Made by a program: the position numbers and the translations under genes. Below, one piece after another: positions 1,925 through 8,346 of a stretch of 64,000 nucleotides of DNA. The stretch is from a virus. Under the pieces are notes generated by a model. That model saw nothing but the letters and a program-made list of their open reading frames with translations, was not told the DNA's origin and searched no databases. The stretch lies in UHGV virus genome UHGV-0072281, one strand, 5' to 3'. Position 1 is the stretch's first letter. Every line of letters begins with the position of its first letter.

Positions 1925-1965
1925 TCGCTAAGTCAACTACTATAACAAAAAAAAACAATAAGTTT

Positions 1966-1998
1966 ACCTACCTCCTTTACGGAGGTAGGTATTTTTTA
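1966..1998. terminator. bidirectional intrinsic terminator between convergent genes
   Basis: acctacctcc-tttac-ggaggtaggt with A-run upstream and T-run downstream. Confidence 0.7.
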
Positions 1999-2670: not shown

Positions 2671-3218
2671 TCGTCTTCTCCTTTAATTAAACCCAGCTCG
2701 ATCAGAAGATCAAAATCGATTTTACGAAACTTACTATCAAAATTTGAGTCCCAGTCAATATGTAGTCCTTGACGTTCGTCTTCTGTAAACTCGGGATAAA
2801 CTAAACTATGAAAAGTTTCCCTTTCATCGTAAAAACCATCGATGGTGGACTCTGGGTTTCGTGTGACATAAATTGTTACACCGGGAAACGATAAGCCTAG
2901 GGCGGCTACAGATTCAACACTCGGCTCTTGCAAAGCGCGTCGCAAAAGAACGATTTTATGTTTAGGGAATTCCAGCACGCGCTGTTCAAAACCTGGGTTT
3001 CGTTTCTCGATTTCAGCCACAGAAAGATCGGTAAGTTCTGTACAATACATCGGAATAACAACGGTAACTCCGTGACGAATTAATAATCGCTTAACATCGT
3101 CATTGAAATCTTCGCCGTTAATCTGTACATAACAGCCAAACAGTTTCGTAGTTTCTAAAAACTTTTCCAGAAAACGGAATTTACGCTTCGTAATATTGTG
3201 GATCAGAATTGGCTTCAT
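2646..3218 (-). CDS. hypothetical protein
   Basis: 190 aa ORF; start overlaps the 3' end of the SPASM-type radical SAM gene (operon coupling). Confidence 0.6.
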   Translation of the reverse strand: MKPILIHNITKRKFRFLEKFLETTKLFGCYVQINGEDFNDDVKRLLIRHGVTVVIPMYCTELTDLSVAEIEKRNPGFEQRVLEFPKHKIVLLRRALQEPSVESVAALGLSFPGVTIYVTRNPESTIDGFYDERETFHSLVYPEFTEDERQGLHIDWDSNFDSKFRKIDFDLLIELGLIKGEDECLLLTKA

Positions 3219-4503
3219 CTTTGGCTTCTCTCAATTGTTTTTCTTTCTGGGCGCGTTCACGTACACAGCGAGGACAGTAACACATGCTATTATCGTGAAA
3301 ATCCTTCACGGATGTTGTGCCCATTTTCTGCTTCCAATATTCCGCAACCATCAATTTTGCAGTTGTCCAACCACACTGACGACGTTCAGCGTGATATGCT
3401 TTACGGTCTTCTAACGTCCCTTCCCCATTCTCGTAGGAAGCTGCTGCACAGCTACCACAAGCGTGTTTCATTGGACAACCTAAGCACGTCTCAGGATAGT
3501 TGGTGTATTGCGTCTGAATCTCTTCCAGCAGTTTCCCACCGTCTAAACTAACGAATTCGCGACCGACTAACTCAAATACCGCAGAGCGTGACGTTACAGT
3601 CGACATGAAACGGTTACAACCGAAAATCTTCCTGTCAAACCCTAAACAAGTCATGTGCGTTAATGTCCCGCAGAACGGGCGCAAGCGTTCCGGGTTTAAA
3701 CGTACAGTATCGTTGTAAAGTAGCTGATCACGCCAGTTCGGTTCCCAGATAGTGTCGAAATCTAACCCTTCCGGGATGATATGCGAAAGGGTATTACGTG
3801 GGTTGGTGTGTAAACCCTTTTCAACCCAATAATCGACTACATCCATCATTTGTAGCGCTATCGACGTAGCCATACTCCGTGGCATAATGTCTTCGAAGGT
3901 TACGTTACCAGAAATGGTTCCACCTCCCGCCAAATCGATTAGGGATTTCATACCCGCCGCATAATGTGGGAGTGTCTCCAAAGTAAATGTCGCTTTAACC
4001 CCAAGCTCCGCGATACCTACTTCTTTTAGATAATTGTAACCACGTACAGCGGCCTCGTAGGAACCTTCGCGACTCGTTGTAAAAATACGGTACTTATCGT
4101 GCGACTCAGGTAACCCATCAATAGATACCCCGATAGAAAGTCTGTCCTTCCAACGTTCAATAATTTCCCTGTTCAACGGCCTATCTAATAATGTCCCATT
4201 AGTAGAGATACTAAACATAAACGGACGTTTATGTTCTTCACACAACTGCTCGGCTGTTTCGAAAGCAGTCATTAGAAGCTTAGGCTGCATAAACGGTTCA
4301 CCGCCGATAATGTCAATGATGACTTCTACGTTTGGTAAATCTTTATCGCGTTCAAAGCAGGCATGAAGAAAGTCTACAATATCCGCTGCTTTGTTATTGC
4401 GGGGATATTTACGCTCGTAACAATACTCACAGTCCAAATTACACGACAAGTTTGTAACAATCTGGTAAGTCAACTGTTTCGGGTAATTATTTTCTTGGTT
4501 CAT
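3181..4503 (-). CDS. radical SAM enzyme with SPASM-type C-terminal domain (peptide-modifying maturase family)
   Basis: N-terminal CNLDCEYC (CX3CX2C), GGEPFM SAM-binding motif, C-terminal CLGCPMKHACGSC (CX2CX5CX3C) plus further Cys. Confidence 0.8.
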   Translation of the reverse strand: MNQENNYPKQLTYQIVTNLSCNLDCEYCYERKYPRNNKAADIVDFLHACFERDKDLPNVEVIIDIIGGEPFMQPKLLMTAFETAEQLCEEHKRPFMFSISTNGTLLDRPLNREIIERWKDRLSIGVSIDGLPESHDKYRIFTTSREGSYEAAVRGYNYLKEVGIAELGVKATFTLETLPHYAAGMKSLIDLAGGGTISGNVTFEDIMPRSMATSIALQMMDVVDYWVEKGLHTNPRNTLSHIIPEGLDFDTIWEPNWRDQLLYNDTVRLNPERLRPFCGTLTHMTCLGFDRKIFGCNRFMSTVTSRSAVFELVGREFVSLDGGKLLEEIQTQYTNYPETCLGCPMKHACGSCAAASYENGEGTLEDRKAYHAERRQCGWTTAKLMVAEYWKQKMGTTSVKDFHDNSMCYCPRCVRERAQKEKQLREAKDEANSDPQYYEA

Positions 4504-5410
4504 TTAATACTCCACTATTACGGTTGGCCATAACCACTCGTCGAATATACTCGTAGGCTTCTAACCCGATGGAACAAGCTAATTGGTTACATCCCGATTC
4601 TAATAATCTCGGGGCATTTTGCAACTGATATTCGGTTCCATCTGCTCTTAACCATAAACTATTGCTGCATACGTTACACCCACCATCAAAAACTTTGCTT
4701 ACGACATAGTCACACCTTTTCGAGTTGGAAACATTCAGTCTTTCTATATTTTCCTGAATTCTAAAATACCCGTAAATAAAGTTCATAACGTGATCGGGAG
4801 ATAACGGTTTTGGCATATTTGCGTCTAACAGCAACGTCATGGTACGATAACCGTAGTGATAGATCGCATTATGAAGCTCAATAATGTCTTCATGCCACCG
4901 TTTGTTACCCAACTGTTCTCGAGTTAAAACGGCCCATGTATGAACATTTTCAAGCTCATGCATTACTTCTAAAGCTTCGTAGCAATCATCGCTAATAAAA
5001 CGCTTAAAAGGGCGTTCAGACAACTCAAACCCGTCGATGCTAACATATACGTTATCAAATTGTTTTAACAACGGTAGATGCGTTTTACGCATCTTTAAGC
5101 CATTGGTGTATAACTGATGTTTGAGTTCTGGGCGAACTGCTTTTAACTCGTCAACAAACGCCTCAATTTTACGAGTGGCTAACAAAGGCTCACCACCCGT
5201 CCATTGAATCTCGGTAATTGTTGGGTTAGCTTCTAACGCCTCCATAATTCGGTCACGTTGAAACTCTCGAGAAGAATCTTCACGATTCATGTAATAGGCT
5301 CCGCCGCAGAAACTACAGTCCAGATTACATTTGGATGTAGTAATAACGGCTAATATAGTTGGATTATCAAATAGCTGATCTGATAATTTTGGTTCCGCAT
5401 TGGTCGCCAT
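4487..5410 (-). CDS. radical SAM enzyme, paralog 2
   Basis: ITTSKCNLDCSFC (CX3CX2C), TGGEPLL motif, C-terminal Cys pairs; 17-nt overlap with downstream SPASM gene; paralog of 7018..7929. Confidence 0.75.
   Translation of the reverse strand: MATNAEPKLSDQLFDNPTILAVITTSKCNLDCSFCGGAYYMNREDSSREFQRDRIMEALEANPTITEIQWTGGEPLLATRKIEAFVDELKAVRPELKHQLYTNGLKMRKTHLPLLKQFDNVYVSIDGFELSERPFKRFISDDCYEALEVMHELENVHTWAVLTREQLGNKRWHEDIIELHNAIYHYGYRTMTLLLDANMPKPLSPDHVMNFIYGYFRIQENIERLNVSNSKRCDYVVSKVFDGGCNVCSNSLWLRADGTEYQLQNAPRLLESGCNQLACSIGLEAYEYIRRVVMANRNSGVLNEPRK
4733..4816. repeat. 84-bp segment identical to 7252..7335 (between radical SAM paralogs)
   Basis: Direct comparison: attcagtctttctatattttcctgaattctaaaatacccgtaaataaagttcataacgtgatcgggagataacggttttggcat at both sites; offset 2519 bp. 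Confidence 0.9.
5064..5110. repeat. 47-bp segment identical to 7583..7629
   Basis: tttaacaacggtagatgcgttttacgcatctttaagccattggtgta at both sites; same 2519-bp offset. Confidence 0.9.
5288..5347. repeat. 60-bp segment identical to 7807..7866
   Basis: catgtaataggctccgccgcagaaactacagtccagattacatttggatgtagtaataac at both sites (encodes the CX3CX2C region); same offset. Confidence 0.9.
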
Positions 5411-5432
5411 TGCAGGTGACTCCGTTAATTAT

Positions 5433-6320
5433 TTAATTATAGTCGATAGCGAACAATGGATCTTCGTCGAAATTGACTCCAGGTTTTAAAACCTTAGTCG
5501 AATTATACGCCTCTAGCAACCGATTAAGATCGTTATAACGACTATTCATTCTTTTGAGGTCTTCTAAGGTCACAATACGATCAAGCATCGGCTTAACGGC
5601 CTCGGCTTCTTCATCAGTCAATTCAACCTTAGACAACAAAAAACTAACAAGTTTAGAAATATCAGCCTCGGTTACTGGACTTTGGCCAAATCGTATTTGA
5701 ACAAGATGTTGCATCCATGGTTTACGAATACGCTTCGTAATAACATGCTCATCAGTAATGGCTTTCCAAACAGAACGTTCACGAATCCATTCGAACTTAT
5801 AGCTATAGGCCATTAAATCAGCTAAATGTGCAATCCCGAGGTCCTGATAACCTTCAATGTTGGTGTATGGTTCACTGTCGGAATACTCTTCAACATCCTT
5901 ACCAACAAGAGTATAGTAATACGGAAAAGCCCCCATGTAATCTGGACTCCACCATCTCCGAACCATAGGCTTAGCGTCAAGCTCAGCAAACGGTGTAAAA
6001 AAAAGTTCTAAATCGCTACCAGCATTTAGAACTCCGTCACTGAAGAAGTATTTACCATCAACAATCATTCCATAAAGTTCATCATCTCCTGTAAAAACTA
6101 TCACACGTTCGACCGGCAGATCACGAATTGTAAAAGTATTTTCTACAGAGATATTATCACGGTTGACGATATCACGACCCCGTAATTTCGGCCATTCGCC
6201 AGGTAGCATGGTAATTAAACGAACGTCGTCACTTAAATGATAACGTACAGAATCTGGAGAAGAGATTTGCAAAGGATGGTTAAATGTAGTGTTATATGCT
6301 AAATGTAAATCGTTTTTCAT
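5433..6320 (-). CDS. hypothetical protein inside the radical SAM cluster
   Basis: 295 aa ORF with AGAGGT SD; no recognisable motif. Confidence 0.6.
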   Translation of the reverse strand: MKNDLHLAYNTTFNHPLQISSPDSVRYHLSDDVRLITMLPGEWPKLRGRDIVNRDNISVENTFTIRDLPVERVIVFTGDDELYGMIVDGKYFFSDGVLNAGSDLELFFTPFAELDAKPMVRRWWSPDYMGAFPYYYTLVGKDVEEYSDSEPYTNIEGYQDLGIAHLADLMAYSYKFEWIRERSVWKAITDEHVITKRIRKPWMQHLVQIRFGQSPVTEADISKLVSFLLSKVELTDEEAEAVKPMLDRIVTLEDLKRMNSRYNDLNRLLEAYNSTKVLKPGVNFDEDPLFAIDYN

Positions 6321-6343
6321 TGAATACCTCTGACACGTTTCTA

Positions 6344-6553
6344 CTACTTATTACCGCCAGCACCACGGCTACAACTACCGCTACAGGACCAGCTACACCC
6401 ACCGTTACAGTTATAGTGACTCAACGGTAAACCAGAAAGGTTATTAGTGGACGACACCGTACCCTGGTTTGCAATATAGTTGTTTGCTCCTGCTGTGGTA
6501 ATGTATCCTTCCGCCGTTACTAATCTGTCGCGTATGTTTTTAAGACTTATCAT
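6344..6553 (-). CDS. short Cys-rich peptide C (leader + short core)
   Basis: 69 aa; leader MISLKNIRDRL similar to peptides A and B; core HYNCNGGCSWSCSGSCS; ATG 3 nt after the stop of peptide B. Confidence 0.6.
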   Translation of the reverse strand: MISLKNIRDRLVTAEGYITTAGANNYIANQGTVSSTNNLSGLPLSHYNCNGGCSWSCSGSCSRGAGGNK

Positions 6554-6556
6554 TTC

Positions 6557-6955
6557 TCATCTTCCCGTACACGATTGCGAACAGCCACCATGACAGGTAC
6601 GACTACATGTACCTGTACATGTAGTCGTACATTGACCTATACATGTCCCCGTGCACCCACCAGAACATGAACTAGTACAACCTGAACATCCAGAACTACA
6701 ACCAGAAACACAGTTTGCTGAACATGAGGAACCACAACCTCCAGAAGCATTACCGGTACAACCACCAGAACAACTGGAGCACGTCCAGCTACAGCTACCA
6801 CCACAGTCGTAATGATTTTTAGGTTGCCCGCCAAATAGGTCGACATTATTCGTAGCCTTTCCACGAATATAGTTCTGTACTGCTCCAGTGTTTTTTAGCG
6901 CGGAAGAATCTATATTATCCAAGCGCGCTTTTAAAGAAGATAAACCAATCGCCAT
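6557..6955 (-). CDS. Cys-rich CXXX-repeat peptide B (putative radical SAM substrate)
   Basis: 132 aa; about 50-aa leader, then DCGGSCSWTCS and ~20 Cys at 4-residue periodicity; AGGTG SD. Confidence 0.7.
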   Translation of the reverse strand: MAIGLSSLKARLDNIDSSALKNTGAVQNYIRGKATNNVDLFGGQPKNHYDCGGSCSWTCSSCSGGCTGNASGGCGSSCSANCVSGCSSGCSGCTSSCSGGCTGTCIGQCTTTCTGTCSRTCHGGCSQSCTGR

Positions 6956-7017
6956 TTTAACACCTACTGGTTCAGTGCCAGCTAAGGCACATTATAATTC
7001 ATTCTCTGTAAAAAATA

Positions 7018-7929
7018 TCACAATTTTGCCGGAATCCTATTCTTAGCCCCTACTACTCGTCGTATATAATCGTAAGCATCTAAGCCAACCTTTCTGGCTA
7101 AGTCACTACAGCCATGTTGCGTTACGATTTCAACGTTTTTTACTTGATTCTGGACACCGTCAGACTCGATACGTAAACAACGACTACATGTATTACAGGG
7201 TTCATCAAATAACGCGTTTAGCGTAAACGCGCACTCGCTTCGATTGGACGAATTCAGTCTTTCTATATTTTCCTGAATTCTAAAATACCCGTAAATAAAG
7301 TTCATAACGTGATCGGGAGATAACGGTTTTGGCATGTTTTTGTCCAAAACTAGCGACATCTCGCAAAAACCGTAATGGTAGATGTGATTATGTAGCGCAA
7401 TTATATCCTCATACCAGCGTTTATCACCGATACGTTCTCGTGTCAAGACTGCCCAGGTACGAATATTTTTCAATTCGTAAATTGTCTCCAACACCTCGTA
7501 TTGTTTTTCTTCGATAATCCGCATAAATGGACGCTCTGATTCTTTGAATCCGTCCATGCTAAAAAAGATGCTATCGAAACCCTTTAACAACGGTAGATGC
7601 GTTTTACGCATCTTTAAGCCATTGGTGTACAGGTAATGATCACAGCGAGGATACTTCTCCCTTATCTCTTCTATAAGGGCATCAATTTTACGCGAAGCGA
7701 GTAATGGTTCACCTCCCGACCACTGAATATTTGTGATGGTCGGGTTATTTTCCAGCGCCTCGATAATACTTTTCTTTTGTACTTCTGCGGTTGTATCCTC
7801 TCTATGCATGTAATAGGCTCCGCCGCAGAAACTACAGTCCAGATTACATTTGGATGTAGTAATAACATTTAACGTTCTTGGTTCAGAATACAATTGATCG
7901 GATACTGTCGGTGTGGTTAACTCTATCAT
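7018..7929 (-). CDS. radical SAM enzyme, paralog 1
   Basis: ITTSKCNLDCSFCGGAYYM (CX3CX2C), SGGEPLL; shares three blocks of identical DNA with 4487..5410. Confidence 0.75.
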   Translation of the reverse strand: MIELTTPTVSDQLYSEPRTLNVITTSKCNLDCSFCGGAYYMHREDTTAEVQKKSIIEALENNPTITNIQWSGGEPLLASRKIDALIEEIREKYPRCDHYLYTNGLKMRKTHLPLLKGFDSIFFSMDGFKESERPFMRIIEEKQYEVLETIYELKNIRTWAVLTRERIGDKRWYEDIIALHNHIYHYGFCEMSLVLDKNMPKPLSPDHVMNFIYGYFRIQENIERLNSSNRSECAFTLNALFDEPCNTCSRCLRIESDGVQNQVKNVEIVTQHGCSDLARKVGLDAYDYIRRVVGAKNRIPAKL

Positions 7930-7953
7930 CAGTAATAGTACCTATCTGTTAAA

Positions 7954-8346
7954 TTAAGTCGGTCCTGAACAAGACGCACATGCGCCACTACATCCCGAGC
8001 TACAACGCCCGGAGCATCTACCACTGCATGTAGCGCTGCAACCAGTGCACCCACCAGAACACGTAGCGCTGCAACCAGTGCATTGATTACCGCAGGCGGA
8101 TGAACAGCTTCCAACACACACTGAGGTGCACGTACCAGAACAACTTGTACAACCATGCGTACAACCGTTCGAGCACGTCCAGCTACAGCTACCACCACAG
8201 TCTAATCGACCCGGTGTCCAGCCTGAAAAAGAATCTGCGGCATTGTGAGCTTTTGATGCAACCTGTGGATCGACGCGGGGTCCTGTCGCCATTTGATTCT
8301 CTACGTTGGTGATTCGATCGCGAACGTTTTTAACACTAATCGCCAT
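7954..8346 (-). CDS. Cys-rich CXXX-repeat peptide A (putative radical SAM substrate)
   Basis: 130 aa; leader MAISVKNVRDRI, junction DCGGSCSWTCS, then CxxxC-periodic core; AAGGA SD. Confidence 0.7.
   Translation of the reverse strand: MAISVKNVRDRITNVENQMATGPRVDPQVASKAHNAADSFSGWTPGRLDCGGSCSWTCSNGCTHGCTSCSGTCTSVCVGSCSSACGNQCTGCSATCSGGCTGCSATCSGRCSGRCSSGCSGACASCSGPT

Follow-up and report, generated by a model that had tools for sequence, protein, structure and literature searches.

The virus genome UHGV-0072281, of which a stretch of 64,000 nucleotides (the window) was analysed, raises the question of what three small cysteine-rich proteins, A, B and C, are for, and why their genes are interleaved with three genes for radical S-adenosylmethionine (rSAM) enzymes. 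An initial annotation of the locus proposed that they were precursors of peptides that are synthesised on the ribosome and then modified post-translationally (RiPPs), with a common, cleavable leader and variable cores. We propose instead, at a probability of about 60%, that A, B and C belong to the tail-fibre module, as small proteins whose Cys repeats are covalently modified, probably into thioethers, by the rSAM enzymes of the phage. The genes are real, paralogous and under purifying selection; they are homologous to Cxxx-repeat proteins, linked to rSAM genes and placed in a tail-fibre context, and fused homologs of them exist. At the protein level the window matches SPN3US-like (Seoulvirus-type) jumbo phages, and the A, B, C region sits within a long minus-strand block of late genes (Table 1). 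Megablast of the locus against GenBank phages gave no nucleotide-level match, and relatives were recovered only by protein-level searches; copies near-identical to the window exist in IMG/VR (L012 and L013 among them), one of which has 224,831 bp. In total, 19 SPN3US-like loci, drawn from GenBank, ENA and IMG/VR, were compared.

In protein A, the first 49 aa form a helical segment and the remaining 81 aa contain 21 Cys; B contains 20 Cys and C contains 4, and the Cys spacing in A and B is mainly 4, with a few intervals of 3 and one of 8. The open reading frames (ORFs), N-termini and junctions of the initial annotation were confirmed, as were its roughly 20 Cys at CxxxC spacing in A and B, whereas C has one Cys fewer than the five it was given. 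The three proteins have the N-terminal motif M-A-I-S-L-K-x-I/V-R-x-R-L in common, followed by the junction DCGGSCSWTCS in A and B and NCNGGCSWSCS in C, and all match phrog_6085, a family of unknown function (E 2e-40 for A, 1e-38 for B and 2e-24 for C); no Pfam family was matched by any of them in a Pfam set that lacks PF27846. The ATG of C lies 3 nt after the TGA of B, as first described, and this tight spacing fits coupled translation.

When A, B and C were compared with their counterparts in three related phages, every Cys was retained (A 21/21, B 20/20, C 4/4) in spite of up to 15 TGT/TGC switches, and synonymous codon differences exceeded non-synonymous ones in all nine comparisons. Therefore, the Cys frame is the coding frame, and A, B and C are paralogous genes kept by purifying selection; C is the most conserved of the three, with 92% identity to its SPN3US counterpart. 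The plus strand and the remaining frames of this DNA also hold long ORFs, which public annotations have chosen instead: the SPN3US records (L001 7040-8069; NC_027402 / JN641803) have no annotation for A and C and place an off-frame ORF, gp100/SPN3US_0166, over B, and in Erwinia phage pEa_SNUABM_29 (L002 5043-6065) antisense ORFs are annotated over A and B. Such ORFs could favour the view that the Cys-rich frames are no genes at all, only chance ORFs in repetitive DNA. This view is refuted by the retention of all Cys despite synonymous switches, by the 268 homologs described below, by synteny and by the lack of a DNA tandem repeat, and we give it a negligible probability; the off-frame and plus-strand ORFs are by-products of the Cys repeat. 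For a model jumbo phage and for its relatives, the reference annotation lacks three conserved genes or has them in the wrong frame. An origin of the repeats by recent DNA slippage was considered and ruled out, since no DNA tandem repeat over the locus was significant; the locus had no Rfam match either.

The repeat belongs to a family that is also found in bacteria. Searching with a profile built from A, B and C gave 268 proteins, and for many of these there are precomputed matches to PF27846 (tSAM_targ_Cxxx_rpt). B scores below threshold against TIGR04117 (16.8 bits, cut-off 50) and TIGR04114 (17.0 bits, cut-off 20), and A and C match neither model. The composition of the repeat is about 26% C, 28% S and 26% G, with Asp and Glu together contributing 0.1% of core residues. 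Of 425 Cys-Cys intervals, 356 span 4 residues, and 84 of 120 homologs among the matches listed contain the motif C-x(1-3)-C-x-[WFY]-x-C. In the bacterial system, as represented by a Bacteroidales locus (L027), a TIGR04117 target with a twin-arginine translocation (Tat) signal stands together with a TIGR04115 enzyme (618 bits), TIGR04119, TIGR04116 and tatA/tatC. Bacterial targets open their repeat with CNGSCSWGC, which matches the phage junction, and phage and bacterial proteins agree in composition and in their repeat unit, C-(S/T)-G-x. The phage proteins thus resemble the bacterial TIGR04117/TIGR04114 and TIGR04115 system in the Cys-every-fourth unit, in composition and in the start motif C-x-G-x-C-S-W-x-C; the SPASM-type rSAM enzyme that adjoins them in the phage has TIGR04115 as its top match, at a score below the cut-off of that model. 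Among 80 IMG/VR loci, a TIGR04115-like rSAM enzyme was encoded at most 6 kb from the Cxxx protein in 64, mainly 1-2 kb downstream and on the same strand; the 16 loci without one were all truncated on one side, and where each flank measured 3 kb or more, the enzyme was present in 61/61.

However, the two systems are not the same. The bacterial one has the Tat signal, TatAC, TIGR04119 and TIGR04116, all of which are missing from the phage A/B/C loci (A, B and C have no Tat-type N-terminus), whereas the phage loci have the 295-aa protein p295, one or two extra small rSAM enzymes, a tail-fibre-type N-terminus and a virion tail module, and all phage scores fall under the curated cut-offs of the bacterial CXXX families. 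The bacterial system is known from computational definition, and a literature search on the CXXX-repeat family, on phage rSAM enzymes with tail fibres and on the SPN3US rSAM enzymes found nothing relevant. A, B and C constitute a phage version of the CXXX-repeat rSAM target system that is associated with tail fibres and, as far as this search shows, was not previously described.

All three rSAM proteins of the locus carry the CxxxCxxC motif and match Pfam Radical_SAM and Fer4_12. The NCBIfam matches of the 440-aa enzyme are headed by the "radical SAM peptide maturase, CXXX-repeat target family", TIGR04115 (model positions 3-344 of 359 covered, E 1e-34), and it also matches the PapB model (E 2e-32, 113 bits, under the cut-off of 340), CteB (E 8e-11) and TIGR03906, which we take to be tied to QhpD. 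Its closest solved structure is the SCIFF maturase CteB (5WGG), with residues 19-178 of the query aligned to residues 105-264 of the chain; therefore, the phage maturase lacks the N-terminal recognition domain of CteB, the RiPP recognition element (RRE). The 440-aa maturase is 24% identical to a bacterial TIGR04115 member that itself scores 618 bits, and shares 36% identity with a fused rSAM protein of a T7-like phage over that protein's C-terminal half. In this 668-aa protein (L003/L004 9330-11336) a small rSAM domain is fused to a PapB/TIGR04115-like SPASM domain, which argues that the two enzyme types, separate in the window, would work together. The 307-aa rSAM enzyme has remote full-length similarity to small rSAM enzymes beside Cxxx proteins in T7-like and other phages, and the 303-aa enzyme is its paralog (63% identical). 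The 440-aa SPASM enzyme is likely the one that acts on the Cys repeats. The accessory protein p295 is present in 19/19 loci; its AlphaFold2 (AF2) model has a mean predicted local distance difference test (pLDDT) score of 86.9 and no fold match in PDB and BFVD. It gave a weak profile match to a 238-aa protein of a T7-like locus (68% probability over 52 columns) and none to a truncated counterpart, and the bacterial TIGR04119 protein had no BLASTP similarity to p295 or to the small rSAM enzyme.

The first part of the RiPP proposal is supported: dedicated enzymes very probably modify A, B and C post-translationally, and the genes of these proteins of 69-132 aa are interleaved with those of the enzymes, as is expected of RiPP loci. 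The second part, a cleavable leader and variable cores from which peptides are released, was not supported. The N-terminal part of A, B and C, about 50 aa long, aligns to internal residues (about 92-140) of homologs of 190-230 aa, the N-terminal domains of which match tail-fibre PHROGs 5073, 9851, 8443 and 910. The segment ends in the fibre motif D/N-x-x-L-x-G-x-x-x-x-H-Y (DADTLDGxHxxYY in the homologs), and in phage-type homologs a fibre-type motif precedes the repeat start, most clearly in cases such as GDADTLDGQHGSYYR-CESGCSWTCS. Among orthologs, leader identity is 43-96% and core identity 63-90%, with a core length of 78-92 aa, and in distant orthologs the leader is 43-46% identical versus 63-66% for the core. 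Core length is thus conserved across related phages, where variable cores had been proposed, and the leaders are not better conserved. No RRE was found, either in the 440-aa maturase or by fold matching of the p295 model, and Pfam, NCBIfam and PHROG scans of the conserved block gave no peptidase or transporter family. Because the segment is internal in tail-fibre homologs, is not better conserved than the core and comes with no RRE, peptidase or exporter, the "leader" of the three proteins is unlikely to be one.

Moreover, long homologs occur, which answers to the evidence that the initial annotation had itself named against its proposal, single long structural proteins without a cleavable leader: Cxxx homologs range from 190 to 968 aa with up to 160 Cys, and some are fused to tail-fibre domains. 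Single chains combine tail-fibre, minor-tail or lipase-type domains with the phrog_6085 region, and C-type homologs of other jumbo phages (P0021-P0024) carry varied C-terminal beta-rich domains. The largest ORFs in IMG/VR, whose starts were assigned mechanically and may be over-extended, are L035 5872-8169 (765 aa/160 Cys), L066 5905-8811 (968 aa/104 Cys), L109 5452-7035 (527 aa/111 Cys) and L105 1579-3321 (580 aa/101 Cys). Three C homologs on other jumbo-phage contigs (P0014, P0017 and P0021) are identical over the N-terminal 68 aa, and their frames diverge after GAGGGG to give products of 92, 106 and 226 aa; this split could reflect slippage on the G run yielding short and long forms, or assembly errors.

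In contigs of myo-, sipho- and podophage type, the genes around Cxxx proteins belong to tails, baseplates or fibres. T7-like contigs encode a protein with a Phage_T7_tail N-domain, a small collagen-like protein and the Cxxx protein, followed by the rSAM genes; the collagen-like protein and the Cxxx protein have their N-terminal domain in common, and a collagen-like repeat takes the place of the Cys repeat. One T7-like contig has the 238-aa protein between the Cxxx protein and the rSAM genes. In a lambda-like contig the order is gpM-gpL-gpK-gpI-gpJ, then the Cxxx protein, then a small rSAM enzyme. Across 32 non-redundant loci, the 25 families most often matched by the two upstream ORFs, where annotated with a function, are tail, baseplate, tail-fibre or structural families, except for radical SAM. 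A, B and C likewise have two traits expected of phage tail-fibre proteins, a position in a module of tail, baseplate and fibre genes and homology to a fibre segment and motif.

In SPN3US, the mass-spectrometry data of virions and of tailless mutants are published (PMC5105663, PMC5694885). There gp168, gp169 and gp170 are baseplate or tail-fibre candidates missing from tailless particles, gp168 is a tail protein similar to phiKZ gp131, gp167 is detected in virions, and gp162-165 (the enzymes, p295 and p190) are not among the virion proteins, as is expected of maturation factors. The absence of A, B and C from these lists is uninformative, because the proteomes were presumably searched against an annotation without these ORFs. 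Digestion of the SPN3US N-termini with trypsin would be expected to yield VQIVEANMATGPR, IDAQVASK and AHNAADR in the case of A and LNTIDANALK and NTTNVQNYIR in that of B.

We therefore propose the following course of events. A, B and C would be made late in infection. Each begins with some 50 aa of helical segment, at the end of which stands the widespread tail-fibre motif and, directly after it, the start motif C-(G/N)-G-x-C-S-W-x-C-S; in A and B, C-(S/T)-G-(G/S/T) units, about 17 more, come next. The SPASM maturase, with one or both of the small rSAM enzymes and p295, would modify this Cys ladder in the infected cell. The likeliest reaction, by analogy with PapB, CteB and QhpD, would join the Cys sulfur to a carbon of neighbouring residues and form thioether bridges, and a floppy Cys/Ser/Gly chain would thereby become a rigid, covalently stapled rod. 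The modified proteins would be kept whole, with the leader not removed, and would be built into the fibre apparatus beside the gp167- and gp168-like proteins. We infer that these enzymes modify A, B and C, the chemistry by which they do so, and that the products enter the virion uncleaved. Further, as a tentative extension that we hold with much less confidence, jumbo myophages, lambda-like siphophages and T7-/crAss-like podophages could all build an unrecognised kind of fibre, with a Cys-every-fourth shaft stapled by phage rSAM enzymes, which would be the first enzyme-installed RiPP-type cross-link of a virion structural protein. On this extension, the three paralogs of the SPN3US group might assemble into a single heterotrimeric fibre by way of the N-terminal helix and junction that they have in common.

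Several points weigh against this proposal. The bacterial partners TIGR04119 and TIGR04116 have no detectable counterpart in the phage, and the 440-aa enzyme reaches 120 bits against a TIGR04115 cut-off of 350. The cores have essentially no Asp or Glu, the acceptors for PapB and QhpD; since these residues are nearly absent, the acceptor in A, B and C is neither Asp nor Glu if, as we propose, the cores are modified. The AF2 monomer model of B predicts N-terminal helices (residues 5-36) and is unconfident over the Cys region (pLDDT 49.8), which is compatible with a fold that would form only upon modification, oligomerisation or binding of metal. Neither A nor B has a receptor-binding or attachment domain of its own that could be recognised, and their incorporation into virions, with that of C, is a step that we infer. 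Finally, the downstream neighbour gp161 is placed, in a published study, in a 20-member family of SPN3US head-protein paralogs, and the downstream edge of the conserved block may not be tail-related.

Other readings of the locus have to account for the same observations. If A, B and C were true RiPP precursors, the 50-aa leader would guide the rSAM enzymes and be cut off, and thioether-rich cores would be freed at lysis as bioactive peptides, for example antibacterial or anti-phage agents or signals. Small precursors beside rSAM/SPASM maturases related to PapB and CteB, three paralogs with an N-terminal motif and a junction in common, tightly packed and probably co-translated genes, and enzymes that are not virion components would all be expected from this. 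A true RiPP is nevertheless unlikely, given that RRE, peptidase and exporter are absent from the block, that the equivalent of the leader is internal in longer homologs with tail-fibre domains (and homologs reach 968 aa), that leaders diverge faster than cores whose length is fixed, that the tail-fibre gene context is kept in four phage architectures, and that C-type homologs have folded C-terminal domains.

We regard as rather improbable the idea that the Cys ladder binds metal or an Fe-S cluster, either along a trimer axis, like the HxH repeats of T4 gp37, or in the manner of metallothionein, with the rSAM enzymes having another role or loading the cofactor. The 26% Cys of the repeat and its strict spacing would suit such a function, as would the lack of a predicted fold in the unmodified B monomer and the Tat signals of the bacterial relatives beside tatA/tatC, Tat being the typical export route of cofactor-loaded proteins; but the linkage to a SPASM-type maturase with thioether-forming characterised relatives is near-obligate, and the block contains no metal-handling genes. 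Finally, A, B and C could be modified and yet remain outside the virion, as scaffolds or chaperones of fibre assembly. Their small size, the lack of a receptor-binding domain and a tail-fibre module in which the non-virion gp162-165 stand alongside agree with this role, which is made quite improbable by the homologs fused to tail-fibre and C-terminal beta-rich domains and by the paralogous neighbour gene in which a collagen-like repeat occupies the place of the Cys repeat.

The proposal of a retained, stapled fibre protein can be set beside systems already characterised. PapB (freyrasin) and CteB (SCIFF peptide, 5WGG) are homologous rSAM/SPASM enzymes that act on Cys-rich substrates with regularly placed Cys. 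PapB joins Cys to Asp or Glu in CxxxD motifs, and the PapB ranthipeptides carry Cys-x3-Asp/Glu motifs, in which the sulfur is joined to the beta or gamma carbon; the phage cores with their 0.1% Asp and Glu do not carry such motifs. CteB has an N-terminal RRE of about 100 aa, unlike the phage maturase, and the products of PapB and CteB are leader-cleaved peptides, whereas those of the phage are probably retained proteins. QhpD, of the quinohemoprotein amine dehydrogenase system, is an rSAM enzyme that forms thioethers in the subunit QhpC, and provides a precedent for a SPASM rSAM enzyme stapling a small Cys-containing subunit that is kept in a larger assembly; QhpC has few cross-links, to Asp or Glu, in an enzyme complex, whereas we propose a repeat rod in a virion. 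Among virion proteins, repeats occur in phage fibres such as the collagen-like ones of tails and the tip of T4 gp37, where HxH repeats bind iron; the HK97 capsid is a covalent chainmail with autocatalytic isopeptide cross-links. These resemble the proposed rod in that a fibrous or virion protein owes its stability to short repeats or to covalent links; to our knowledge, none of them uses dedicated rSAM enzymes.

The whole arrangement is strongly conserved among relatives. The order fib1727-cc401-A-B-C-p295-small rSAM-large rSAM-p190-p224 is invariant in all 19 SPN3US-like loci, and a far more divergent jumbo-phage fragment (L009) keeps A, B, C, a p295 homolog, the small rSAM, the large rSAM and a p190-like protein, with C reduced to two Cys. 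Among GenBank phage records, 62 have the small rSAM enzyme and 62 have the B N-terminus, and the counts by organism name are identical. The 303-aa rSAM enzyme between A and B is found, among the 19 loci, only in the window and its near-identical copies L012 and L013. It matches the small rSAM enzyme of the most distant relatives better than the resident 307-aa enzyme does, which suggests that it was acquired from another lineage and did not arise by recent tandem duplication. The locus is a mosaic: its flanking fibre genes share 96-98% identity with those of L007 and L016, but for A, B and the small rSAM enzyme the figure is only 66-73% (window 3181-8346); because of this difference, the Cys-repeat/rSAM cassette appears to be exchanged, or to evolve much faster than its neighbours, like host-range cassettes. 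In two phage contigs of 175-179 kb (L005/L006), the called gene beside the Cxxx protein (L005 6677-7465) has three in-frame stops under translation table 11, which suggests stop-codon reassignment in that phage.

The initial annotation also held that the junction was conserved in DNA between A and B. Their identity is indeed exact, and extends over 32 nt rather than 30; the quoted 30-nt string occurs exactly twice (6779-6808 and 8173-8202), with 0 occurrences expected in shuffles. It is specific to this phage, and in six relatives the A and B junctions differ at synonymous sites; the identity is therefore best explained by a short, local gene-conversion tract peculiar to this phage rather than by a conserved DNA element. 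A functional DNA or RNA element of 30-32 nt was ruled out, being absent in the six relatives and having no Rfam match.

Table 1. Features of the Cys-repeat/rSAM locus in the window, with positions counted from its first nucleotide
Feature	Start	End	Strand	Basis or counterpart
fib1727, 1727-aa baseplate or tail-fibre candidate	9653	14836	-	homolog of SPN3US gp168
cc401, coiled-coil protein of 401 aa, directly upstream of A	8413	9618	-	phrog_2163; homolog of SPN3US gp167
Hairpin and U-run between cc401 and gene A, terminator- or attenuator-like	8358	8403	-	-20.9 kcal/mol, z -3.8
Gene A, 130-aa Cxxx-repeat protein	7954	8346	-	ORF; phrog_6085; Cys conservation; in 19 related loci
Junction DNA in A, 32-nt run identical to that of B, coding for DCGGSCSWTCS	8171	8202		exact identity, lineage-specific
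Extra small rSAM enzyme, 303 aa, between A and B	7018	7929	-	Pfam Radical_SAM and Fer4_12; CxxxCxxC
Gene B, 132-aa Cxxx-repeat protein, paralog of A	6557	6955	-	ORF; phrog_6085; in 19 related loci
Junction DNA in B, 32-nt run identical to that of A	6777	6808		exact identity, lineage-specific
Gene C, 69-aa paralog	6344	6553	-	ORF; phrog_6085; in 19 related loci
p295, accessory protein of 295 aa	5433	6320	-	phrog_8030; homolog of SPN3US gp165
Small rSAM enzyme, 307 aa	4487	5410	-	homolog of SPN3US gp164; Radical_SAM and Fer4_12
SPASM-type rSAM maturase, 440 aa	3181	4503	-	homolog of SPN3US gp163; TIGR04115/PapB matches
p190, conserved neighbour of 190 aa	2646	3218	-	phrog_7988; homolog of SPN3US gp162
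p224, DUF4376 protein of 224 aa, downstream edge of conserved block	1996	2670	-	homolog of SPN3US gp161

Two hairpins were observed in and next to the block. The one upstream of gene A (Table 1) has an equivalent in SPN3US (L001 6981-7025), in which the sequence of the outer stem differs, and these differences may be compensatory changes; the hairpin could be a terminator, an attenuator or an RNA stability element that sets the expression of A, B, C and the enzyme genes. Between convergent genes at window positions 1965-1991, a perfect hairpin with an 11-bp stem and T-runs on both strands looks like a bidirectional terminator that ends the minus-strand block.

The much faster divergence of the module in comparison with the flanking fibre genes suggests a role in host-range evolution. 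If the proposal is true, rSAM "peptide maturases" would extend beyond natural-product biosynthesis, and viruses would use them to harden or shape their receptor-binding fibres. Covalently stapled Cys-repeat rods, with a length that can be tuned between 4 and about 160 Cys, could also be of interest to protein engineers. For the uncharacterised CXXX-repeat rSAM family, the locus would provide a first biological context and, with the amber-mutant system and the published virion proteomes of SPN3US, a tractable model.

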